The notes beneath the pieces are model-generated. The model saw nothing but the letters and a program-made list of their open reading frames with translations. It made no database searches and was not told where the DNA came from. Both the position numbers and the translations under genes were made by a program. Below, piece by piece: positions 3,610 through 41,615 of a DNA stretch of 42,232 nucleotides (the first letter of the stretch is position 1; each line of letters opens with the position of its first letter). Source of the stretch: an uncultured Methanosarcinales archaeon (GTDB lineage: Archaea; Nanobdellota; Nanobdellia; Woesearchaeales; JAGWAF01); NCBI GenBank assembly GCA_964529655.1, contig CAZGZA010000002.1:10705-52936 (forward strand), read 5' to 3'.

Positions 3610-3759
3610 AAACTTTATTCTTGCCGGTGTATAGCACTGCAAATGCAAAAAATATTTTTGTTTTATTTTTTATTGTATATAAAGTATGAAATGCTTTATA
3701 TGCTTAAAAAATTATTTATAATTTTTTATTGGTTATTTGTTTTTTAAGGTTTATTTCTA

Positions 3760-6366
3760 GTGCCTGATAGAAAAATCACTGGCGAAAGGTTTATATTTGT
3801 TTTGCAGCTTCTTAATAGTATGTTGCCGGATAAGGAGCTAAAGGCGCATTACAGACCAATTTTTTGGAAGACTCCGGAAAAATATTATGCCGTACAAATC
3901 CTGAAAGAGGATGGTTTCACAAGGCACATTTGCAAAAAGTGCGGCAAGCCATTTTGGAGTATTGACAGTGCAAGGGAGGCCTGCGGTGATCCCAGCTGCG
4001 CTGAGGATGAAAGTTTTGCTTTTATCGGGAAGAGCCCTGCAAAACATTCGCTCGAATATGTTGAAGTTTGGAAAAAATTCTCCAGAATGTTCAGCGAGTT
4101 TGGCTATAAGCCAATAAAAAGGTATCCTGTTGTTGCACGCTGGAATCCCACTATGGATTATACAAATGCTTCTATTGCGGCATTCCAGCCATATGTTATA
4201 TCAGGTGAAGTTGAGCCGCCCGCCAATCCCCTGATAATTCCCCAGTTCTGCCTGCGATTTGGAGATATTGATAATGTTGGGATAACAGAGTCGCATAACA
4301 CAGGTTTTGTTATGATAGGCCAGCACTCCTTCCAGGAGCCAAAAAACTGGAATCAGAATATGGCCTTTTGGCACATCAAGCAGTGGCTGAACCACGGGCT
4401 TGGATTAGAGGATAAGGAATTAATATTTCACGAAGATGCCTGGGCTGGTGGCGGCAATCTCGGATGCTGCATGGAATTTTATTCAAGAGGATGCGAACTA
4501 GGAAACCAGGTGTATATGTTATATGAACAAACACCCTCGGGTGTAAAAGACCTCAAAATCAAGGTATTGGATATGGGGATGGGCATGGAGAGGAATGCCT
4601 GGTTCTCGCAGGGAAAAAATACTATTTACAATGCAACATTTCCAAAAGTAATCAAAAAATTGCTGGCCGCAACAGGGGTAAAGCAGGATTCGAAACTGCT
4701 TGAAAGGTATATCCCCTACGCTGGGCTGCTTAATCTTGATGAGGTTGAGGATATCAACAAAGCATGGCAGATTGTAGCGGAAAAGGTTGGTATCAGCGCA
4801 GAAGAGCTAAAACAAAAAATACTGCCCCTGAGGTCAGTTTACGCAATAGCCGAACATGCAAGAAGCCTTTTGGTTGTATTAAATGATGGTGCTCTTCCCT
4901 CAAATATTGGTGGAGGCTACAACTTAAGGGTGCTTGCACGCAGGGCCATGTCCTTTATTGAGGATAACCATTGGAATATCTATCTGCCGGATGTATGCAA
5001 ATGGCATGCAGAAGAACTAAAGGGGCTGTTCCCGGAACTCAGCGAGAATCTGGAGAACATCCAAAAAATAATTGAGGTTGAAAAGGAAAAGTTTGAAAGC
5101 ACCAAACAGAAAACAAGGTATATTATCACAAAGGTTGCAAAAGAAAAATTAACTGAAGAAAAACTCCTGCAATACTATGACTCTTATGGCATCACTCCGG
5201 AAATGGTGCAGGAGGAAGCGCTTAAGCATTCTCTCCAGGTTAAGGTTCCTGAAGATTTTTATAATAAGGTTGCAGCACGCCATCTTGACACAAAGCCGAA
5301 GGAAATTGTCCCTGGCATAAAAGAGCTGAAAATTGATACATCCGGCATTCAGCCGACAGAAACATCTTATTATGAAGACTGGAAAAAGAGAGAGTTCAAA
5401 GCTAAAATCACAAAGGTAGAGGGTAATCTTGTTGTTCTTGATGAAACATACTTTTATCCAACATCGGGCGGACAGGACCATGATACTGGAGAGGTTTCCC
5501 TAAATAGTGAAACCGCAAAGGTAATTAATATCTTTAAATATGGCCCGCACATCGTTCATGTCCTTGACAGAACGCTTAAGCTAAAGGCTGGCGACAGTAT
5601 ACAATGCCGGATTGATTTCAGGCGCAGAATGCAACTGACGCAGCATCATACAGCCGCTCATATAATTAATGCAGCAGCCAGAAGGGTTCTAGGCCACCAT
5701 ATTAATCAGGCAGGTGCTAAAAAGAGCGTTGAGAGGGGGCATCTTGATGTTACCCATTATAAGTCAATTTCTGAAGATGAGCTTGCGCAAATCGAAAAAG
5801 AGGCGAATAAAATTATTCAGGATGCTATTGAGGTCAGAAAAATGTCTCTGCCGCGAAGCGAGGCAGAAAAGAGGTATGGGCTGGCTATCTATCAGGGAGG
5901 AGCTGTGCCTGGAAAAATTATTAGGATTGTGGAAATCCCTGAGGTAGACGTGGAAGCATGCGGCGGAACGCATGTGGATAACACAAAAGAGGTTGAGGTA
6001 ATAAATATTTTTAAGAGCATCAAAATTGCGGATGGTGTTGTTAGGCTGTTATATGTTGCAGGCGAGGCGGCAAAACAAACAGCAAAGCACGATCAGGACC
6101 TGCTGAAACAGGCTGCTGAGATTTTAAATGTCAGCCAGTCTGAAGTGCCGGGCCGTGCAGAAGAGCTGTTTGAAGCGTGGAAAAAATTAAGGAAGGATGC
6201 CAAAAGAAAAAAGATTCTTGACAAAACAGTTTATAAACTCTCAAAAAAAGAGGAATATTTTGGCGACAGCCTTGCGAAAACAGCTGAGATACTGAATACA
6301 CAGCCAGAACACATACCTCAAACAATAAAGCGGTTTTTGGCGGATATTGAAGCTTGGTTAAGATGA
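3760..6366 (+). CDS. alaS: Alanine--tRNA ligase (archaeal type)
   Basis: 868 aa. The editing-domain motifs HHTAAHIINAA and CGGTHV are present and the N-terminal catalytic region is of archaeal AlaRS type. The GTG start is uncertain. Confidence 0.95.
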   Translation: MPDRKITGERFIFVLQLLNSMLPDKELKAHYRPIFWKTPEKYYAVQILKEDGFTRHICKKCGKPFWSIDSAREACGDPSCAEDESFAFIGKSPAKHSLEYVEVWKKFSRMFSEFGYKPIKRYPVVARWNPTMDYTNASIAAFQPYVISGEVEPPANPLIIPQFCLRFGDIDNVGITESHNTGFVMIGQHSFQEPKNWNQNMAFWHIKQWLNHGLGLEDKELIFHEDAWAGGGNLGCCMEFYSRGCELGNQVYMLYEQTPSGVKDLKIKVLDMGMGMERNAWFSQGKNTIYNATFPKVIKKLLAATGVKQDSKLLERYIPYAGLLNLDEVEDINKAWQIVAEKVGISAEELKQKILPLRSVYAIAEHARSLLVVLNDGALPSNIGGGYNLRVLARRAMSFIEDNHWNIYLPDVCKWHAEELKGLFPELSENLENIQKIIEVEKEKFESTKQKTRYIITKVAKEKLTEEKLLQYYDSYGITPEMVQEEALKHSLQVKVPEDFYNKVAARHLDTKPKEIVPGIKELKIDTSGIQPTETSYYEDWKKREFKAKITKVEGNLVVLDETYFYPTSGGQDHDTGEVSLNSETAKVINIFKYGPHIVHVLDRTLKLKAGDSIQCRIDFRRRMQLTQHHTAAHIINAAARRVLGHHINQAGAKKSVERGHLDVTHYKSISEDELAQIEKEANKIIQDAIEVRKMSLPRSEAEKRYGLAIYQGGAVPGKIIRIVEIPEVDVEACGGTHVDNTKEVEVINIFKSIKIADGVVRLLYVAGEAAKQTAKHDQDLLKQAAEILNVSQSEVPGRAEELFEAWKKLRKDAKRKKILDKTVYKLSKKEEYFGDSLAKTAEILNTQPEHIPQTIKRFLADIEAWLR

Positions 6367-10224: not shown

Positions 10225-11379
10225 ATGGCTGCTTTGAGGAAAATAGCTTCAATTATAGTGTTAACCACTGTTTTTGGATTTGCCAGGTCACAGTTAGACC
10301 CGATTTTATCACCCTATGCCAAGAGCCTTGGCTTTAGCACTTTTCAGATAAGCTTATTTTTTGCGGTTTTCTCTCTTGTGATGATATTAATGTCGCCGCT
10401 TATCGGAAGAATTTCAGATGGCATTGGCAGAAAGAGGGTGATTCTTGCCGGCCTGCTTGCCTCAGCCATAGCTTTAGTGCTTTATACTCTTAGCAGTTCA
10501 TGGATAGTCTTTATCGGTGCAAGAGTGCTGGACGCAATGGGTTTTATGTCTGTGGGGTTAATTGCAATATCCAAGCTTGAGGATGGCATTGATGATAGGC
10601 AAAGAGGTGCATTTACAGGATTTAGCGAAAGCATCAACAGCGTTGGAGCAATACTCGGGCCTTTATTAGGCGGCTTTATAGCTGATTATTATACTGTTAA
10701 GATGCCATTTTTCACTGCAGCATTTATAACATTGCTGCTGTTCTTTTTTGTCTTATTCTGGAAAGAGCCTCCTAAAAGGGCATTGCAGCTGTCAGACATT
10801 AACTTTATTCAAAGCTTAGCCAAATTTCTAAAAATCCGGGAGCTAAGGGCAATAGCTCTCCTTGGATTTTTTATGTACGCAACTATCCCGGTAACATACA
10901 TTTTTATTCCTCTTATGATTGTTGAGGAGTTTCATAAACCTTATTCTTATGTGGGGTATTTTTTAGTGGCATATGTTTTCTTTAACCTCTTCCAGTTTGC
11001 TTACGGTAAAATAAGCGATACCATGGGTCAAACCCCAATCTTAGTCCTTGGCGGGGTTATGAGCGGGATAATACTTATTCTTTACGCACAGACGCCATCC
11101 TTTGGCATTCTGCTGTTGCTAACGCTCGCCAGGTCATTTGCAGACGCCAACTGGAGTGTTACTACCTGGGCTTTCATATCGAAAATAGGTGAAAAAAAGC
11201 AGTTTGAGGGCCAGGTTACTGGTTCATATTACTCGCTTGTTAGAATTGGCTCCTTTTCAAGCTATGCGCTCAGCAGCCTGGTGGTGTTGTATTTTAATGT
11301 GCAGGTGCTATTTGTTTTATACGGGGTGTTGCTGATTGCCGCGGCATTGGTTGCAGAAAGAATGCTTGCAAAAGCGTAA
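10225..11379 (+). CDS. MFS transporter
   Basis: About 12 TM segments and MFS motif A, GRISDGIGRKRVILAG. Confidence 0.85.
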   Translation: MAALRKIASIIVLTTVFGFARSQLDPILSPYAKSLGFSTFQISLFFAVFSLVMILMSPLIGRISDGIGRKRVILAGLLASAIALVLYTLSSSWIVFIGARVLDAMGFMSVGLIAISKLEDGIDDRQRGAFTGFSESINSVGAILGPLLGGFIADYYTVKMPFFTAAFITLLLFFFVLFWKEPPKRALQLSDINFIQSLAKFLKIRELRAIALLGFFMYATIPVTYIFIPLMIVEEFHKPYSYVGYFLVAYVFFNLFQFAYGKISDTMGQTPILVLGGVMSGIILILYAQTPSFGILLLLTLARSFADANWSVTTWAFISKIGEKKQFEGQVTGSYYSLVRIGSFSSYALSSLVVLYFNVQVLFVLYGVLLIAAALVAERMLAKA

Positions 11380-14718: not shown

Positions 14719-14793
14719 AGCGAGGTAGGGCAGACAGGAGTGCCCGGGGGGCTCATAACCCCCAGGTCGGTGGTTCAAATCCACCCCTCGCTA
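14719..14793 (+). tRNA. Initiator tRNA-Met (CAT)
   Basis: Hand-folded cloverleaf: acceptor AGCGAGG/CCTCGCT with A1:U72, anticodon arm GGGGG-CTCATAA-CCCCC (a G:C run typical of initiators), T arm GGTGG-TTCAAAT-CCACC. Confidence 0.9.
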
Positions 14794-14933
14794 TTTTTAT
14801 GTTTGTAGTTTGTGGGACTTCATGAAGTGAATGTCCCATTCTTTTTGATCAAACTTTTCGTTAGTTCATGAGCGCGCTCATGAACTAAGCCACGCATGGC
14901 CGTAAAAGTTTGGTGAATATCCACCTCTCGTTA
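14794..14933 (+). repeat. tRNA-iMet trailer cassette ending in a degenerate copy of the tRNA 3' end
   Basis: CCACCTCTCGTTA (14921-14933) matches the tRNA 3' end CCACCCCTCGCTA (14781-14793) at 11/13. It is preceded by AAAAGTTTGGTGAATAT. It contains the module 14814-14860, shared with the tRNA-Pro trailer, and a 28-nt perfect palindrome at 14861-14888. Confidence 0.75.
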
Positions 14934-18561: not shown

Positions 18562-19326
18562 ATGGACAAATTTAAGGTTGCAGCTGCGCAAATAAACCTC
18601 AATCAAACATTTGCGTTGGTGCTGAAGGATATGCTGAACTATATTGACCGCGCCAAGGCAAAGGGGGTTGATATCATCTGCTTTCCAGAATCCTCACTTT
18701 TAGGAGGTGACACAAAGAACAGATGGGCGCTCGGAAAGCTAAGGCAGAAATGTAAAGAGAAAAAGATATGGGTCATTGTTGCCGGACGCGTTCGGGAAAA
18801 GAAGCATGTTTATAACACTGCTTTTTTAATAAATAATCAGGGAAGAATTCACGGAAAACACAAGAAGGTCCACCTTTCTGAATGCCTGACACCCTCACTA
18901 AGAGCAGGTTCGGCATTTAAAGTCTATGACACGCCTTTCTGCAAAATAGGGCTGGCAATCTGCTGGGATGTTGCATTTCCTAATGCAGTTCAGAGCATGG
19001 TTAAGAAAGGAGCAAAGTTAATATTCTGTCCAATGTATTGGTGCTTTGAGGAATGGGTGCACAGGAAAGAGCCTAAAAAGTTCGAGAAAAAGCTTCTCAG
19101 GGCGCTGGTCCTTACAAGGGCGTTTGAAAATCTTGCTTATACTATTGTCTGCAATGCTTATGACCAGAAAAGGCCTGACCTGACTTCATACTCTGCAATA
19201 GCAGAGCCGCACAAGATAATAAGCGAAATTTTCGAAAAAGAGGGTATGATTACGGCTGAGGTTGACCTTAATTATCTTAAGAAAGTAAGAAAGAAGTATG
19301 CAGAAGATTATAACAAGGTTTTTTAA
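18562..19326 (+). CDS. Carbon-nitrogen hydrolase (nitrilase superfamily)
   Basis: The E-K-C triad context is CFPES, HGKHKKVHL and GLAICWD. Confidence 0.85.
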   Translation: MDKFKVAAAQINLNQTFALVLKDMLNYIDRAKAKGVDIICFPESSLLGGDTKNRWALGKLRQKCKEKKIWVIVAGRVREKKHVYNTAFLINNQGRIHGKHKKVHLSECLTPSLRAGSAFKVYDTPFCKIGLAICWDVAFPNAVQSMVKKGAKLIFCPMYWCFEEWVHRKEPKKFEKKLLRALVLTRAFENLAYTIVCNAYDQKRPDLTSYSAIAEPHKIISEIFEKEGMITAEVDLNYLKKVRKKYAEDYNKVF

Positions 19327-20210
19327 CCTAGCTTCCTGCAAATCCCGTATAAGTAACTAACCAGCAGCCTTGCCAGCCTTGGGGCGTCATGATTGATAAA
19401 AAAGAGGTCTGGACAGCTGTTTGCCTCAATAATATACCACCTGTTCTGGGCGTAGATAAGGTCTAGCCCGCAAACCTCCAGTCCGCAAACCCTTGAAGTC
19501 TGTTCACACAACGCTTTTAGTCTCTTGCCGATTCTTGCCAGCATAAAATGTTCTTTATGGCTGCTGCCGGTTTGTTTCCAGCTTCTCCCGCCAAGTTTGC
19601 CAACAGCCTGTTTTACCTTATAATTAATCAACGTAACTCTATAACTTCTGTGATCACTCGGAATATATTCCTGAGCAAGGACAGGGGAAACCGGATTTCT
19701 CCTTAAAATTTTAGACAATTTTTTGAAAAAGTCTTTTGGCGTCGCGGCCCTCTCAACGCACACTCCGTTATCAGAAAAAACTGCTTTAATAACTAATGGC
19801 TGCTTCTTAAGAAGGTTCCTGATAAAAGGATTGTTTGATTTTAAATCACGCGGGATAAAATAGGTTCTCGGAGTGGGAATTCCATTCTCAATGCACTTAA
19901 GATAGAACATCCATTTATCCTCCTGATAATAAAAGGAATGCGTCGGAGAGACAACCCTCTTGCCAAGCTCTTCAAGGGTTTTGGAAAGCTCAACAGACTC
20001 CTGTAATTCAGGGCCGGCGGCGGCATAATTAAGAATAACCTTGCAGGATTTTACCTTTTTTTTAAAGGATATTGGGTCAAGCTGCTCCTCTACTGGCAGG
20101 AGAACTACATCCAGCCTTCTGCCAAGCGTGGAGATAAGAAGTTTGTCTATGTTATCAACTGACTCTTTGTAATAGATATAGCCGATAGAATATCTCTTTT
20201 GTTTCATCAA
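19323..20210 (-). CDS. ATP-grasp family ligase (RimK-like)
   Basis: The size, the central lysine-containing region LVIKAV and the C-terminal LDLIY..WYIIEANSCPDL are typical of ATP-grasp folds. Confidence 0.55.
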   Translation of the reverse strand: MMKQKRYSIGYIYYKESVDNIDKLLISTLGRRLDVVLLPVEEQLDPISFKKKVKSCKVILNYAAAGPELQESVELSKTLEELGKRVVSPTHSFYYQEDKWMFYLKCIENGIPTPRTYFIPRDLKSNNPFIRNLLKKQPLVIKAVFSDNGVCVERAATPKDFFKKLSKILRRNPVSPVLAQEYIPSDHRSYRVTLINYKVKQAVGKLGGRSWKQTGSSHKEHFMLARIGKRLKALCEQTSRVCGLEVCGLDLIYAQNRWYIIEANSCPDLFFINHDAPRLARLLVSYLYGICRKLG

Positions 20211-20245
20211 AGATTAATAAGGCAAAAAGGGTATTTATATTTTGG

Positions 20246-20278
20246 GATTTTAGTCCAAAAAAATGCGCTGGCCGGGAT
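20246..20278 (-). repeat. Duplicate of the tRNA-Gly(TCC) 3' end plus its trailer
   Basis: GATTTTAGTCCAAAAAAATGCGCTGGCCGGGAT (20246-20278) matches 20333-20364 with a 1-nt indel. A CCAGATTTTT..AAAAATCTGG hairpin lies between the two copies. Confidence 0.85.
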
Positions 20279-20349
20279 ACCCACCAGATTTTTAAAAAAA
20301 TCTGGTAAAAACATTGGACATAAAATCTTTGAGATTTTAGTCCAAAAAA

Positions 20350-20420: not shown

Positions 20421-20606
20421 ATTTGTTATGATAGCAGAAGACATAAAAAAATATACAATTAGCAGGTCTTCTGCTATTAGCCAAAGGCATACTAATTGTA
20501 TAAACAATTATGTCTTTGGCTATAAAATGGCGGGTTGTATTATAAAGTTTTTGCTCTTTTTAAAAAGCAAATCTTTAAATTTCTCTTGCGCTTTGTCTCT
20601 TAATAC

Positions 20607-20680
20607 GGGGCTGTGGTCTAGCTTGGTATGATACACGCATGGGGTGCGTGTGATCGGGAGTTCAAATCTCCCCAGCCTCA
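20607..20680 (+). tRNA. tRNA-Pro (GGG)
   Basis: Acceptor GGGGCTG/CAGCCTC, anticodon arm ACGCA-TGGGGTG-TGCGT, T arm GGGAG-TTCAAAT-CTCCC. Confidence 0.85.
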
Positions 20681-20929
20681 TTTGGAATTAAAGCTGTAGC
20701 GCAGGTTTAATTCCAGCTTTTTACCAGATTTTTACCGAAAAATCTGGTGGTAATCTCCCCAGCCCCAGTTATTTGTTTGTAGTGGGTAATTCTTGGGACT
20801 TCACGAAGTGAATGTCCCATTCTTTTTGATCAAACTTTTCGCCAAAACACTCAAAAATCCATTAAGATTTTTGGTGTCCTAAAAATTCCCGGAATTTTTA
20901 TGAGTTTGGTGAATATCTCCCCAGCCTCA
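20681..20929 (+). repeat. Two tandem tRNA-Pro trailer cassettes, each ending in a copy of the tRNA 3' end
   Basis: ATCTCCCCAGCCCCA (20753-20767, 1 mismatch) and ATCTCCCCAGCCTCA (20915-20929, exact) both match the tRNA at 20666-20680. Confidence 0.85.
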
Positions 20930-20960: not shown

Positions 20961-21758
20961 TTGCAGTCAAATATGGAAGATTATCCCTGTGCTTGTATTG
21001 AGGACAAGATAGATAATACGGATATTACAATTTTGGGGGTTCAGCATGTTGAGCCATTTCTCTTGCAGCATTATTCTTTTTTGCAAAGCCAGATTAATAA
21101 AGCAGATGCAGTAGTTCTTGAACAGGTCGTTGGCGGCTCATCTGTGACAGACAGCTTCTTTGGCCATCTTGCTATGATAGCAATTCCAAAGCCGGTTTAT
21201 GTTGTTGATCCGATTAATACCGCTTTGTTTTTTACTGATAGGGTACTCGGATTTCTTGGATTATGTATAATGTTAACCAGTCCAATGCGTTATGCCACCC
21301 GTTTCGTAGCAAAGAAAGTGTTTAAAGGTAAGGAAAGCAAAAAAGCGCCTACAAGAAGGGAGTTTTTAGGAAGCCTTTTCAAAAGCGCTGCAATATTTGG
21401 TGCAGGAACTTCGCTTTTTTCAGGCAGTCTTAGTTCGCTTTCATTAAAGGATGCTATATCCCCCAATATGGTTTTGAACTATGGTGTTGAAGATGTTTTA
21501 TCGTACGGCTCAATAGACTTTAGGAATATTATAATAGCAGAGGGTTTAAACAAGATTATAACCACACAAAAAGAAAAGAAGATTCTTACTATTCATGGCG
21601 ATGCGCACTCAAAACCTATTCATTATTATTTAACGCACCCGGCTTTTAGAGCTAAAAAGCTTGCTTACCTGCCATTTGCGCTGATATGCCGGAATGAGAT
21701 TAAGAAATACCAGTTTATGGGATTTGACTGGAGAATGGAGGCGACATTACCATTCTAG
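20961..21758 (+). CDS. Hypothetical protein, possibly TraB/GumN-like
   Basis: DITILGVQHVEP near the N-terminus and TIHGDAHS near the C-terminus weakly recall the TraB/GumN family. The likely true start is the ATG at 20973. Confidence 0.35.
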   Translation: MQSNMEDYPCACIEDKIDNTDITILGVQHVEPFLLQHYSFLQSQINKADAVVLEQVVGGSSVTDSFFGHLAMIAIPKPVYVVDPINTALFFTDRVLGFLGLCIMLTSPMRYATRFVAKKVFKGKESKKAPTRREFLGSLFKSAAIFGAGTSLFSGSLSSLSLKDAISPNMVLNYGVEDVLSYGSIDFRNIIIAEGLNKIITTQKEKKILTIHGDAHSKPIHYYLTHPAFRAKKLAYLPFALICRNEIKKYQFMGFDWRMEATLPF

Positions 21759-23526: not shown

Positions 23527-24545
23527 ATACTAGCATTAGAGGGAGTTGACAAGAATAACGCAGACTTGCTGATTAATGCTATAATAGTAAGCAAGTCTGC
23601 GGAATGTACAAGAATGACAAACAATCCATTAATAAATATTGATAAAATCAAGAGCAGGATTTATACTATTAGAAGCCTACAAGTAATGCTCGATGCAGAT
23701 CTTGCAGAGCTTTATAATGTAGAGACAAAAACATTAAATCAAGCAGTTAAAAGAAACAGTGAAAGATTTCCAAAAGAGTTTATGTTTCAAATAGCTCAAG
23801 AAGAGTTTGATAATTTGAAGTCACAATTTGTGGCCTCAGGTGCAAAAGATTTAAGGTCACAAAATGTTACCTTAAAAAACAGAAGAGGGCATCACCGGAA
23901 GTATCTTCCATATGTTTTTACAGAGCAGGGAGTTGCAATGCTTTCAGGAGTCTTAAAAAGCAACACTGCGGTAAAGATAAGCATACAAATAATGAGCGCA
24001 TTTGTCGCAATGAGGCAGTTTATCTATTCAAATGCCCAAATATTTTATAGGTTAAATGTTGTAGAAAAAAAGCAAATAGAATATGACAATAAATTTGATG
24101 AAATATTCGATGCCATACAAAGCAAAGATATAGTCCCTGAGAAAGGAATATTTTTTGATGGGCAGATATTTGATTCATACCAATTTGTTTCTGGCTTAAT
24201 TAGAAGCGCTAATAAGTCCATTATCCTTATTGATAATTATATAGATGATTCTGTATTGACTCTATTCAGCAAGAGAAATAAAAATGTGCAAGCCACTATA
24301 TTCACTAAAGAGATTTCCAAGCAATTAGCTCTTGATTTAACCAAATACAATTCACAATACCCATCAATCGAAGTAAAAGAGTTTAAACAGTCGCATGATA
24401 GGTTTCTTATAATAGATAATAAGGATGTTTACCATTTTGGGGCATCATTAAAAGATTTAGGCAAAAAGTGGTTTGCATTCTCAAAATTTGACAGGGAAGC
24501 AGTTAAGCTGCTGGATAAGCTGGGGTTGAAATGAAAGAGGGGTAT
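23527..24545 (+). mobile_element. Candidate inserted cassette carrying an ORF6N-domain gene, bounded by duplicated glycosyltransferase 3' ends
   Basis: It is flanked by the direct repeats 23411-23526 and 24546-24658. No integrase or transposase is present. Confidence 0.45.
23614..24534 (+). CDS. ORF6N (KilA-N-like) DNA-binding domain protein with a C-terminal PLD-like degenerate HKD region
   Basis: IRSLQVMLDADLAELYNVETKTLNQAVKRNSERFPKEFMFQ is the ORF6N signature. The C-terminal HDRFLIIDNKDVYHFGASLKDLG resembles an HxK-x4-D...GS motif with K replaced. I placed the start at MTNNPL. Confidence 0.7.
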   Translation: MTNNPLINIDKIKSRIYTIRSLQVMLDADLAELYNVETKTLNQAVKRNSERFPKEFMFQIAQEEFDNLKSQFVASGAKDLRSQNVTLKNRRGHHRKYLPYVFTEQGVAMLSGVLKSNTAVKISIQIMSAFVAMRQFIYSNAQIFYRLNVVEKKQIEYDNKFDEIFDAIQSKDIVPEKGIFFDGQIFDSYQFVSGLIRSANKSIILIDNYIDDSVLTLFSKRNKNVQATIFTKEISKQLALDLTKYNSQYPSIEVKEFKQSHDRFLIIDNKDVYHFGASLKDLGKKWFAFSKFDREAVKLLDKLGLK

Positions 24546-31295: not shown

Positions 31296-31439
31296 TGGGC
31301 CCATCCAGATACCTACCAGATTTTTTAGAAAATGCACAAAAATCTAAAATATTTTTGGCATCCTGGAAATCCGCAGATTTCCATGAATCTGGTAAAAATA
31401 TGCGACATAAAATCCTTCTGGGATTTTAGTCGCAAAAAC
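31296..31439 (-). repeat. tRNA-Val trailer cassette ending in a copy of the tRNA 3' end
   Basis: TGGGCCCATCCAGAT (31296-31310) matches TGGGCCCAACCGGAT (31440-31454) at 13/15. The hairpin GACATAAAATCC..GGATTTTAGTC is at 31404-31431. Confidence 0.75.
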
Positions 31440-31511: not shown

Positions 31512-31546
31512 AATGAAGTTTTAACGTGCTTGATTCTCCCAAAAAA

Positions 31547-31704
31547 TCTGGGCCCACGGGGATTTTCACAAGATTTTTACCAAAGCACAAAAATCCCAGA
31601 GGATTTTTGGCTCCCAAAAAACTTTTGGTTTTTTGTGGAAATCTTGTAAAAAGTGGGCGACATAAAATCCCTTCAGGATTTTAGTCCCTCTAAACTTTGA
31701 AATC
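31547..31704 (-). repeat. tRNA-Ile trailer cassette ending in a copy of the tRNA 3' end
   Basis: TCTGGGCCCACGGGGATTT at 31547-31565 is identical (19/19) to 31703-31721. The hairpin is at 31659-31686. Confidence 0.85.
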
Positions 31705-31824
31705 TGGGCCCACGGGGATTTGAACCCCAGACCTTCGGCTTTCCTAGCGCCGAAAGCGGCCGTATAAGACCGACGCTCTAACTGCCCGAAAGTTTTAGCT
31801 TCCTCCAGGCTGAGCTATGGGCCC
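31705..31824 (-). tRNA. tRNA-Ile (TAT) with two introns (D-loop and canonical 37/38)
   Basis: Removing 31782-31804 (23 nt) and 31741-31762 (22 nt) gives a 75-nt cloverleaf, GGGCCCATAGCTCAGCCTGGTTAGAGCGTCGGTCTTATAAGCCGAAGGTCTGGGGTTCAAATCCCCGTGGGCCCA. The anticodon loop is CTTATAA. Confidence 0.7.
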
Positions 31825-31868: not shown

Positions 31869-31977
31869 TGCAACAGCCGGGATTTTCACCAAACTTTTTT
31901 TGACAAAAGGTTTGATCAAAAGCAGCGACATAAAATCCCTACAGGATTTTAGTCGCAAACACGACCAACACATTCTA
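31869..31977 (-). repeat. tRNA-Gly(GCC) trailer cassette ending in a copy of the tRNA 3' end
   Basis: TGCAACAGCCGGGATTT (31869-31885) matches TGCGACAGCCGGGATTT (31978-31994) at 16/17. The hairpin is at 31927-31954. Confidence 0.8.
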
Positions 31978-32053: not shown

Positions 32054-32156
32054 TGCCCCTGACGGGACTTTCAGATTTCAGTCAAACTGAAAACTTTTGA
32101 ACCCATGTCACTGCCTCGAAAGGGCAGTATGATTGACCGGACTACACCACAGGGGC
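32054..32156 (-). tRNA. tRNA-Glu (TTC) with an intron in the T-loop
   Basis: Sense GCCCCTG..CAGGGGC acceptor, anticodon arm CTGCC-CTTTCGA-GGCAG. The T stem ATGGG/CCCGT is interrupted by ~26-28 extra nt (about 32070-32097) inside the TTCAAA..GT loop. Confidence 0.75.
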
Positions 32157-41061: not shown

Positions 41062-41166
41062 ATGAAGAGAAGTTCACGACGCTGGAAAAAAAAGGGGCAG
41101 ATGCGCTGGAAGTGGCAGCGCAAGAAGATGCGAAAGGAAAAAAGAAAGAGGCATGCTAAAATCTAA
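41062..41166 (+). CDS. rpl41e: Ribosomal protein L41e
   Basis: I translated this by hand; it is too short for the ORF track. The product is MKRSSRRWKKKGQMRWKWQRKKMRKEKRKRHAKI. The KRSSRRWKKKG-MRWKW-KK-R block matches archaeal L41e as I recall it. Confidence 0.7.
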   Translation: MKRSSRRWKKKGQMRWKWQRKKMRKEKRKRHAKI

Positions 41167-41539
41167 TACTCTTAATTTTGGTATTCCAATACTCATTTAG
41201 AAAAGAGATTTTATTCCCTATCATTTTAAGGATCATGATGCCAACCATATGATGTTGCTCTTTTTTATGGATGTTCTTGCATTCCCATTCTGCAAAACCT
41301 GTTTTTCCATCTTCAGACACATAACATTTTCCAACTTTAAATTTTGTTTTTGTAGTTTCTTGCTTCACTACTCTGTCCCAAAATCGCTTAATTTCTTTGT
41401 GCGACTGGTAGGGTTTTGCTAATGGGCTTTCTTGATAGATTCCATTTTTTGTAAAACATTCAAGAAGCAAATTGGAATCCTGAGTTTCCCAAGCTTTTCC
41501 ATATTTTTTCATCACTTCTTTTATTTGTTGAATATCCAT
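41156..41539 (-). CDS. SnoaL/NTF2-like fold protein
   Basis: MDIQQIKEVMKKYGKAWETQDSNLLLECFTKNGIY is a typical N-terminus for SnoaL-like/NTF2 domains, and the size is ~125 aa. Confidence 0.55.
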   Translation of the reverse strand: MDIQQIKEVMKKYGKAWETQDSNLLLECFTKNGIYQESPLAKPYQSHKEIKRFWDRVVKQETTKTKFKVGKCYVSEDGKTGFAEWECKNIHKKEQHHMVGIMILKMIGNKISFLNEYWNTKIKSIRF

Positions 41540-41615
41540 ATCAGATTTTCCCTCAGGATATTGCACTAAATTTCAGTGCAGGTAAGTAATTTGTTTTCAC
41601 CCATTTTTAATAATC

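Follow-up and report, generated by a model that had tools for sequence, protein, structure and literature searches.

Hairpin-rich cassettes behind the tRNA genes of a Woesearchaeota-type archaeon, each ending in a copy of its own tRNA's 3' end

Why should an intact tRNA-Pro gene be followed by two further copies of its own 3' end, each set behind a different hairpin-rich segment? The question is raised by a stretch of 42,232 nucleotides (nt) from an uncultured Methanosarcinales archaeon (GTDB lineage Archaea; Nanobdellota; Nanobdellia; Woesearchaeales; JAGWAF01), namely positions 10,705 to 52,936 of the forward strand of contig CAZGZA010000002.1 (GenBank assembly GCA_964529655.1), which as a whole is called the window here. 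An earlier note on this DNA had claimed that two types of trailer cassette stand in tandem behind the tRNA, each ending in the tRNA-Pro 3' end, as repeated insertion into a regenerated target would produce. The locus is composed as follows:

20607 to 20680, plus strand: tRNA-Pro(GGG), intact and without an encoded CCA (ARAGORN; Rfam, 53.4 bits; sequence)
20681 to 20752, plus strand: cassette c1, 72 nt (sequence; fold z-score -5.5)
20753 to 20767, plus strand: middle copy of the tRNA-Pro 3' end, ATCTCCCCAGCCCCA, 14 of 15 positions identical, with T71 replaced by C
20768 to 20914, plus strand: cassette c2, 147 nt (sequence; fold z-score -3.5)
20915 to 20929, plus strand: distal copy of the tRNA-Pro 3' end, 15 of 15 positions identical, the identity running on through TTT to 18 nt

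The repeated target corresponds to the last 15 nt of tRNA-Pro (20666-20680) and comprises T-loop positions A59-T60, the 3' strand of the T-stem, the 3' strand of the acceptor stem and the discriminator. This sequence, ATCTCCCCAGCCTCA, is found again without mismatch at 20915-20929; together with ATCTCCCCAGCCCCA it gives three matches with at most two mismatches in the window, where 0.10 are expected, and three matches were reached in none of 100 shuffles, so the repeat lies far above chance. The tandem arrangement and the 15-nt identity are therefore as the earlier note described them, and its helix and hairpin lie where it had placed them: the TACCAGATTTTT..AAAAATCTGGTGG helix at 20718-20753, the GGGACTTCACGAAGTGAATGTCCC hairpin at 20795-20818 and TTGATCAAACTTTTCG at 20826-20841. 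Cassette c1 consists of a 3-nt spacer, a first hairpin (H1) of the variant GGAATTAAAGC..TTTAATTCC (20684-20714), a T-run, and a long helix (H2), ACCAGATTTTT/AAAAATCTGGT, with a purine linker (20718-20753); this H2 is identical to that of the cassette behind the neighbouring tRNA-Gly(UCC). In c2, a 27-nt spacer containing GTAG is followed by an H1-B hairpin with a bulged T (20795-20818), a T-run, the 5' strand of H2, ATCAAACTTTT (20829-20839), two inner hairpins (20852-20873 and 20880-20900), and the 3' strand of H2 with the linker, GAGTTTGGTGAAT (20902-20914).

The arrangement is not confined to tRNA-Pro. According to ARAGORN, Rfam and hand reading, a cassette lies 3' of six of the seven tRNA genes of the window, every time in the orientation of its tRNA, which gives seven cassette copies in 42 kb, each ending in the 3' end of its own tRNA. 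ARAGORN and Rfam together found tRNAs for Met, Gly(UCC), Pro, Val and Gly(GCC) and an intron-containing tRNA at 31705-31824. All tRNAs located 5' of window cassettes are complete (48-74 bits with the Rfam tRNA model), and the mature tRNA sequence is not interrupted by the cassette. The further cassettes are:

14794 to 14933, plus strand: cassette of tRNA-Met (14719-14793), with H1-B at 14814-14837, H2 of the ATCAAAC type and one GC-rich inner hairpin; z-score -6.2
20239 to 20349, minus strand: cassette of tRNA-Gly(UCC) (20420-20350), with H1-A at 20343-20316 and H2 at 20306-20283; z-score -5.7
31296 to 31439, minus strand: cassette of tRNA-Val (31511-31440), with H1-A, H2 of the ACCAGAT type and two inner hairpins; z-score -6.9
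31544 to 31704, minus strand: cassette of the two-intron tRNA (31824-31705), with H1-A, H2 of the ACAAGAT type and two inner hairpins; z-score -4.4
31869 to 31977, minus strand: cassette of tRNA-Gly(GCC) (32048-31978), a mosaic of H1-A and H2 of the ATCAAAC type (folding, sequence)

The cassette of tRNA-Met ends in ATCCACCTCTCGTTA (14919-14933; 13 of 15 positions identical to the tRNA end), that of tRNA-Gly(UCC) in a copy at 20278-20264 (15/15), that of tRNA-Val in ATCTGGATGGGCCCA (31310-31296; 13/15), and that of tRNA-Gly(GCC) in ATCCCGGCTGTTGCA (31883-31869; 14/15). The two-intron tRNA has a perfect distal copy, ATCCCCGTGGGCCCAGATTT (31563-31544), in which the 15/15 identity extends to 20 nt. 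Directly 3' of the distal copy of tRNA-Gly(UCC), a second, truncated cassette begins on the minus strand (20263-20239, TTTTTTTGGACTAAAATCCCAAAAT); it comprises the first 25 nt of a cassette, that is the T-run and the first half of H1-A, and extends into the region upstream of a RimK-like gene. In the 42-kb window and about 150 kb of related loci, cassette motifs occur solely behind tRNAs and always in tRNA orientation. We also note that the spacer between the divergent tRNA-Gly(UCC) and tRNA-Pro genes (20431-20523) is filled by two adjoining palindromes with arms of 12 bp and 14 bp, which together make up a 46-nt imperfect double palindrome.

All cassettes share the H1/H2 fold (z-scores of -3.5 to -6.9 against shuffles) and a common order of parts: spacer (3-27 nt), H1, T-run, H2 with none to two inner hairpins, linker, and, directly after the linker, the copy of the tRNA end. 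Their size is about 70-150 bp, with the tRNA-Pro pair at 72 and 147. H1 has a foot of 4-5 bp, (G)NGAC/GTCN(C), then, on its 3' side, a bulged T that does not vary, and an upper stem that opens with T-A. H2 has an 11-bp core, A[CT][CA]A[GA]A[TC]TTTT / AAAA[AG]T[CT]T[GT]GT, which the T-run lengthens by pairing with the purine linker G(G/A)NWAT, and several of the inner hairpins again carry a bulged T. When the window copies are taken together with those on contigs L001, L004, L006 and L008 of related archaea, compensatory double changes maintain pairing at 6 of 10 H1 pairs and 4 of 11 H2 pairs. H1 occurs as variant A (GACTAAAATC), variant B (GGGACTTCAC) and the c1 variant, H2 as ACCAGAT, ATCAAAC and ACAAGAT. 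The modules are reassorted: the tRNA-Gly(GCC) cassette combines the GACTAAAATC hairpin with the ATCAAAC helix. The earlier note's types A and B are therefore recombinant members of one family: their hairpins are real, but they are exchangeable modules of a mosaic rather than two separate kinds, and c1 has its own third H1 variant. The tRNA-Met cassette and c2 of tRNA-Pro are identical at 47 of 48 nt from H1 to the 5' strand of H2. No cassette contains an open reading frame (ORF), and no Rfam family covers the cassettes even at E<=1, the gathering score being reached by tRNA and rRNA only. Neither Rfam nor the literature searched yielded a description of cassettes of this kind. Two roles as a functional RNA were considered and rejected. 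A C/D-box, H/ACA or K-turn RNA would require box motifs, which are absent by eye, and there is no Rfam match. A tRNA-like fold that includes the distal copy (T-arm mimic or minihelix) does not agree with the pairing of the conserved linker GGTGAAWAT with the T-run 5' of H2, which extends H2; in most cassettes the linker is not complementary to the T-stem, and by eye the spacers hold no 5' acceptor-like strand.

The repeats and their junctions follow a pattern of their own. The majority of repeats begin at T-loop position 59-61 with a length of 13-15 nt; longer ones are of 18 nt (c2 of tRNA-Pro and the distal cassette, c2, on the related contig L018), 20 nt (the two-intron tRNA), 24 nt (tRNA-Pro on L001) and 26 nt (the proximal cassette, c1, on L018). 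The earlier note's view that each cassette regenerates the same target sequence is supported, but the duplication has no constant length of 15 nt and spans 13-26. The junction from cassette to repeat is precise (...WAT|C61) in 9 of 10 cases, at the same T-loop position in seven different tRNAs, whereas the junction from tRNA end to cassette is ragged; 2-3 nt (AT/AAT) are common to the end of the cassette and the T-loop. The 26-nt repeat of the proximal cassette on L018 is free of mismatches, the others having 0-2, which can be taken as an age signal. A complementary DNA of a mature tRNA was rejected as the source of the repeats because no proximal or distal copy is followed by CCA. On selection acting on the distal copies at the RNA level, the substitutions are uninformative: four of six are C to T opposite G, keeping a G-U pair, but this is what mutation bias on a C-rich strand would give, and one substitution breaks a pair.

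The earlier note had further predicted that cassette number at tRNA-Pro would differ among related genomes and that stacked cassettes would be found at other loci. The relatives compared are species-level ones (CDC48 80-81% identical, other proteins about 50-75%); they are represented by contig L001 (GCA_053532575.1) and, for those nearest by CDC48 and by RNase HII (75%), by L008 and L012 (GCA_053531995.1) and L018 (GCA_053532555.1). The gene beside tRNA-Pro (ORF 20961-21758) has only three distant homologues, two on contigs without tRNAs and one on L001, which is syntenic. There, tRNA-Pro(GGG) carries a single c2-type cassette, whose H1 and H2 show compensatory changes and whose 24-nt repeat is perfect, against two cassettes in the window; the adjacent tRNA-Gly(UCC), followed in the window by one cassette and the truncated start of a second, has none on L001, but a T-loop intron. 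For tRNA-Met the count is one in the window and zero on L012 and L013. tRNA-Gly(GCC) covers the whole range, with no cassette on L008 (where 2 nt separate tRNA-Gly(GCC) from the next tRNA, and tRNA-Glu lacks a T-loop intron), one in the window and two, stacked, on L018, which has the same tRNA cluster. The distal L018 cassette and the single Gly(GCC) cassette of the window match each other best (77/88); the former ends in a perfect copy that reaches 3 nt past the tRNA end, whereas the proximal one is nearest to the window's Gly(UCC) cassette (71/77); its perfect 26-nt repeat covers the whole T-arm and the 3' strand of the acceptor stem, with a junction that falls within H2. The two stacks are ordered alike: the type that a relative also has stands distally, and the lineage-specific type adjoins the tRNA. 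On L008, the tRNA after the Gly(GCC)/Glu cluster is followed by a partial cassette, which is interrupted by another repeat. Look-ups for the proteins P0012, P0007, P0126 and P0129 led to contigs that lack these tRNA loci. Both predictions were therefore borne out, by two cassettes against one at tRNA-Pro and by further stacking on L018 and, as a truncated start, at the window's tRNA-Gly(UCC); occupancy of 0, 1 or 2 and the stacking at a second locus support repeated insertion into a regenerated target. The note's view of an active or recent process rather than a static conserved terminator stands in part: a static terminator does not fit the presence/absence pattern and the tRNA-specific repeats, but the support comes from comparisons between species and applies to the time-scale of species divergence.

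We regard the cassettes as a family of small, non-coding, hairpin-rich insertion elements that are specific for the 3' ends of tRNA genes in a narrow lineage of Woesearchaeota, and assign this reading a probability of roughly 0.6. It is best read as a non-autonomous element whose insertion duplicates, and so regenerates, the target. Insertion with target duplication is the simplest explanation because it accounts for matched repeats on seven tRNAs, a single family, a fixed orientation, differing occupancy and the proximal position of lineage-specific cassettes. Such site-specific, target-duplicating elements may represent a hitherto undescribed family, and a new mechanism is a real possibility. 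A putative machinery acting in trans would open the tRNA gene by offset breaks, one in or near the T-loop-coding segment (usually at position 59-61, once at position 48) and the other at the discriminator or a few bases beyond. The element would be joined in a single fixed orientation, and gap filling would duplicate the 13-26 bp between the breaks, leaving an intact tRNA whose 3' end is repeated on the far side of the element. Since the proximal copy once more offers a full target, it could admit a second element, giving the order tRNA, direct repeat (DR), c1, DR, c2, DR as at tRNA-Pro, with the newer element adjoining the tRNA. We infer that the repeats are target-site duplications (TSDs), where the breaks fall, in which order the elements entered and that a dedicated enzyme exists. 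H1 and H2 are presumably recognised by this machinery, or by a single-stranded DNA or RNA intermediate. The intermediate may be DNA (cut, join and fill, casposase- or Cas1-like) or RNA (target-primed reverse transcription, SINE-like, as for short interspersed nuclear elements); an exact 3' junction (...WAT|C61) combined with a ragged 5' junction and duplications of variable length would favour, slightly, an RNA route or break repair over an integrase of the ruler type. Unequal crossing-over was rejected as the source of the stacks at tRNA-Pro and at Gly(GCC) of L018 because the stacked cassettes differ in type at both loci.

Several observations weigh against insertion as the explanation. The window and the ORFs of the loci tested with Pfam revealed no transposase, integrase, Cas1 or reverse transcriptase gene, nor was a TnpA/RAYT, insertion sequence (IS) or transposase gene seen in the window. 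Terminal inverted repeats (TIRs) are lacking, inverted comparison of the first with the last 25 nt in seven cassettes giving no better match than shuffles do, and on its left the element lacks a sharp boundary because the sequence from the tRNA end to H1 varies (3-27 nt). Among the relatives, the intergenic DNA is too diverged for aligning an exact empty site with its filled counterpart, and a metagenome scan with the tRNA-Pro core gave no population variant, only one unrelated GC-rich contig without a cassette. Finally, the cassettes keep their sequence and hairpins between genomes whose proteins are 50-80% identical, which could equally mean a function for the host.

Such a function is the core of the first rival explanation, in which the cassette is a 3' trailer module (a terminator or insulator with multiple T-runs, or a structured RNA that undergoes processing) and owes its persistence to selection, not to mobility. 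Helices maintained by compensatory changes, the invariant bulged T, strong folds, the orientation fixed relative to the tRNA and an H1-B hairpin nearly identical in distant Woesearchaeota all agree with it, as do the sense-strand T5 runs, of which each cassette has at least three; oligo-T is the archaeal termination signal. A selected module would, however, leave the tRNA-specific 3'-end copies and the stacking of differing variants without a reason, and it is at odds with close relatives whose orthologous tRNAs lack cassettes, with 0, 1 or 2 at one tRNA, with the decay of distal copies (Met and Val, 13/15) and with the T-run straight after most tRNAs, which should end transcription before H1 is reached. 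We consider it unlikely, although cassettes, once present, could be useful as terminators through their many sense-strand T-runs. Insertion might also have proceeded without an enzyme, if cassettes were copied between loci by template switching during replication or by break repair at hairpin-prone, highly transcribed tRNA genes. This would lead one to expect insertion with a flanking duplication of variable length, and the segment indeed varies between 13 and 26 bp; one junction lies inside H2 (L018 c1), a long palindrome (H2) sits right at the junction together with the 2-3-nt AT/AAT overlap between cassette end and T-loop, and neither TIRs nor an enzyme gene were found. Nevertheless, 9 of 10 right junctions at one T-loop position, in seven tRNAs and a single orientation, are far more regular than known template-switch products, and the exclusive association with tRNAs also requires a targeting principle, which makes this route quite unlikely.

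Integrase-type elements have direct repeats of tRNA 3' parts as their hallmark, and tandem accretion at one tRNA is known for them (PMC4090602, PMC3293823); a cassette might accordingly be the surviving arm beside the attachment (att) core of a virus or plasmid of the SSV or pNOB8 kind after deletion. The ORF at 3622-3939 (plus strand) of L001, about 170 nt past the distal tRNA-Pro copy, has a C-terminal FMRHDDLETTMGYIWI that resembles by eye the end of a tyrosine recombinase, but Pfam gives no support. The cassettes are one non-coding family of 70-150 bp that is not tied to one att core, being found at Pro, Met, Gly-UCC, Gly-GCC, Val and Ile-like tRNAs with repeats specific for each host. Integrase-type recombination is an unlikely source because the incoming attP element would need to bring a separate tRNA fragment for every target, and every copy would need an independent deletion leaving exactly H1 and H2. 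Moreover, nothing coding and no integrase fragment lies between the repeats, which are short (13-26 bp), Pfam was negative for neighbouring ORFs, and neither H1 pattern had a match in 2.9 million viral contigs, on which ground a viral origin was rejected. We therefore hold integrase scars to be improbable. An assembly or binning artefact, in which mis-joins induced by repeats produce tandem copies, is scarcely credible: the assembly is of the metagenome type and short repeats can mislead assemblers, but the same architecture occurs at seven window loci and, with variants of their own, on two independently assembled NCBI contigs of metagenome-assembled genomes (L001, L018), the 15-nt repeats are shorter than assembly k-mers, and the flanking cassettes differ from each other.

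Among known systems, the nearest parallel to the cassettes is the integration of casposons by Cas1. The family 2 casposon of Aciduliprofundum boonei targets the 3' end of tRNA-Pro, uses the T-loop-coding segment as a recognition 'leader' and generates a 15-bp TSD; its target is regenerated and tandem insertion is expected (PMC5137440). The cassettes resemble it in the tRNA-Pro 3' end, the T-loop segment directly upstream of the duplicated segment, a duplication of about 15 bp and the regenerated target. Casposons, however, are kilobase-sized, encode Cas1 and PolB and have TIRs, and the native 15-bp TSD in A. boonei overlaps the tRNA by 5 bp, whereas the cassettes are non-coding, 72-147 bp long and without TIRs, reside at many tRNAs and have duplications of 13-26 bp almost wholly inside the tRNA, with no Cas1 among the window ORFs. 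A fixed duplication of 14-15 bp, as in casposons, would suit most repeats (13-15 nt from T-loop 59-61), yet 18, 20, 24 and 26 nt occur. Integrase elements (SSV, pNOB8-type, and the Caldiarchaeum model of tRNA disruption) share with the cassettes a partial tRNA copy flanking the insert and a restored tRNA, and insertion has been proposed to be linked to the formation of tRNA introns or split genes (PMC3293823, PMC4090602); they differ in measuring kilobases, in encoding a recombinase and in carrying a fixed tRNA fragment for one target, where the cassettes are a tiny family at many tRNAs with host-matched repeats. In the Thermoproteales, transposed tRNA introns consist of near-identical short sequences in many tRNA genes of one lineage (Fujishima et al. 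2010, summarised in PMC4090602). The cassettes are similar in that the H1-B module occurs inside T-arm introns of other Woesearchaeota, but those of the window lie behind an intact tRNA and are bounded by its duplicated 3' end.

In size (72-147 bp), lack of coding capacity, copy number (7 in 42 kb) and flanking direct duplications, the cassettes are also similar to MITEs, the miniature transposable elements with inverted repeats. With MITEs, REP/BIME and the palindromic elements derived from IS200/IS605 (PATEs) they have in common an intergenic position, imperfect palindromes with an extrahelical base, modular clusters and, presumably, mobilisation in trans. MITEs are marked by TIRs and by TSDs of a short, fixed length; the insertion of REP and IS200/IS605-type elements duplicates no target and shows no specificity for tRNAs. 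The cassettes, in contrast, have no TIRs matching a parent IS, and although they share the bulged-T hairpin with REP/BIME and IS200/IS605, every one of them is bounded by a duplication. Eukaryotic retroelements and SINEs targeted to tRNA genes (Dictyostelium TRE, Ty3) resemble them in their tRNA targets, the absence of TIRs, variable duplications and a precise 3' together with a ragged 5' junction; they differ in that no reverse transcriptase was seen among the ORFs examined and no clear A-tail in the cassettes. To our knowledge, retroelements targeted to tRNA genes are known in eukaryotes only, where targeting is via Pol III (RNA polymerase III) factors.

The only window tRNA without a cassette points to a possible connection with tRNA introns:

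32054 to 32156, minus strand: tRNA-Glu(UUC), hand-read; Rfam sees its 5' part only, below threshold

ARAGORN misses this gene because of a 29-nt insert in the T-loop (32095-32067), located at the usual start position of the cassette duplications. The 5' part of the insert matches H1-A at 16 of 19 positions (p about 0.01), its 3' end CTGAAAGT|CCC parallels the cassette linker GTGAAAAT|CCC, and in the folded precursor a hairpin is flanked by 6-nt loops (junctions inspected by eye for a bulge-helix-bulge motif). The insert is present in L018 and absent from the L008 orthologue. The neighbouring tRNA at 31705-31824 (minus strand), called Arg(TCG) by ARAGORN, is Ile(UAU) by hand reading of its anticodon loop CUUAUA and by its L008 orthologue; it has two introns, one in the D-loop and a canonical one, and the D-loop intron is again present in L018 and absent in L008. 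Outside the window, the 28-nt H1-B (cGTGGGAYTTCACGAAGTGAATRTCCCAC) is almost unchanged in three other Woesearchaeota-type species, the only 3 species in a genome scan, and its sites (L004 3980-4008, L005 2217-2253, L006 174-203) lie inside or beside heavily interrupted, intron-rich tRNA genes. In a tRNA-Ser(UGA)-like gene on L004, H1-B and an H2-like helix stand between the 5' strand of the T-stem and a T-loop with the 3' end further downstream; only the downstream 3' end is intact in this gene, which was parsed by hand and is called by neither ARAGORN nor Rfam. On L005, H1-B follows the T-loop of the orthologous gene, and on L006 it lies just upstream of an intron-rich tRNA. The L005 hairpin is flanked by direct repeats of about 57 nt (GGTTACGCTCGACTGG...GGAAAAAC).

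The mechanism by which archaeal tRNA introns are gained or transposed has been stated to be unknown (PMC4090602). If the proximal 3'-end copy were lost, or if an element entered without stagger, the cassette would become an obligatory intron that must be spliced out. The tRNA-Glu insert, the tRNA-Ser-like unit of L004 and the position of H1-B on L005 hint at such a link, and by their sequences may be read as suggestive of it only. The more far-reaching idea, that the cassettes are a mobile element of archaea, specific for tRNA genes and of a new type in its mechanism (no TIRs, variable duplication, possibly an RNA intermediate), and that the same family seeds non-canonical T-arm and T-loop introns, is offered tentatively and considered rather unlikely.

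tRNA genes are classic landing sites for mobile DNA, and the known users, integrase elements and casposons, are large and carry genes; here a tiny non-coding hairpin family occupies the ends of many tRNA genes, with the target duplicated, the tRNA kept intact and copies stacked. Should insertion be the right explanation, it would pose a new problem of target recognition, the T-arm being the only element common to all targets, provide a natural system with 0, 1 or 2 occupants in which to seek the enzyme, and bear on how Cas1-type 'leader plus repeat' integration relates to tRNA targeting. Seeding of introns by cassettes, if true, would be a concrete mechanism for tRNA intron gain in archaea, and the likeness of cassettes to T-arm introns makes the gain of non-canonical introns testable by comparative genomics of the clade. 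Cassettes and introns also defeat standard tRNA finders, several window tRNAs being missed or mislabelled by ARAGORN.

The window is archaeal. It closes with the 5' part of a 16S rRNA (Rfam), and for its CDC48 and RNase HII the nearest proteins bear the label Woesearchaeota/Nanoarchaeota. The sole gene with a mobile-element flavour seen in it encodes an ORF6N-domain protein (23566-24534, plus strand; Pfam E 5e-34), a domain common in regulators of phages and mobile elements. On L008, a GC-rich repeat of about 120 nt occurs in two copies, 87% identical (18908-19025 and 19447-19565), that flank the tRNA cluster, the downstream copy lying inside the partial cassette; this repeat is possibly a further small element, mobile or structured. 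On L010 (12440-12800), a contig that is likewise of the Woesearchaeota type but more distant, no cassette lies 3' of tRNA-Pro(CGG), and several GC-rich hairpin-like repeats (for example CAGGATGYCAC...GGTGG) are found there. Finally, the same or related strains are represented in samples such as ERZ27284377, SRR22388213, SRR22387874 and SRR16110266; the 136-aa protein encoded at 41156-41566 (minus strand) of the window is encoded identically on a 946-bp contig (L016, ENA ERZ27284377), and therefore the same or a very close strain is present in another sample.

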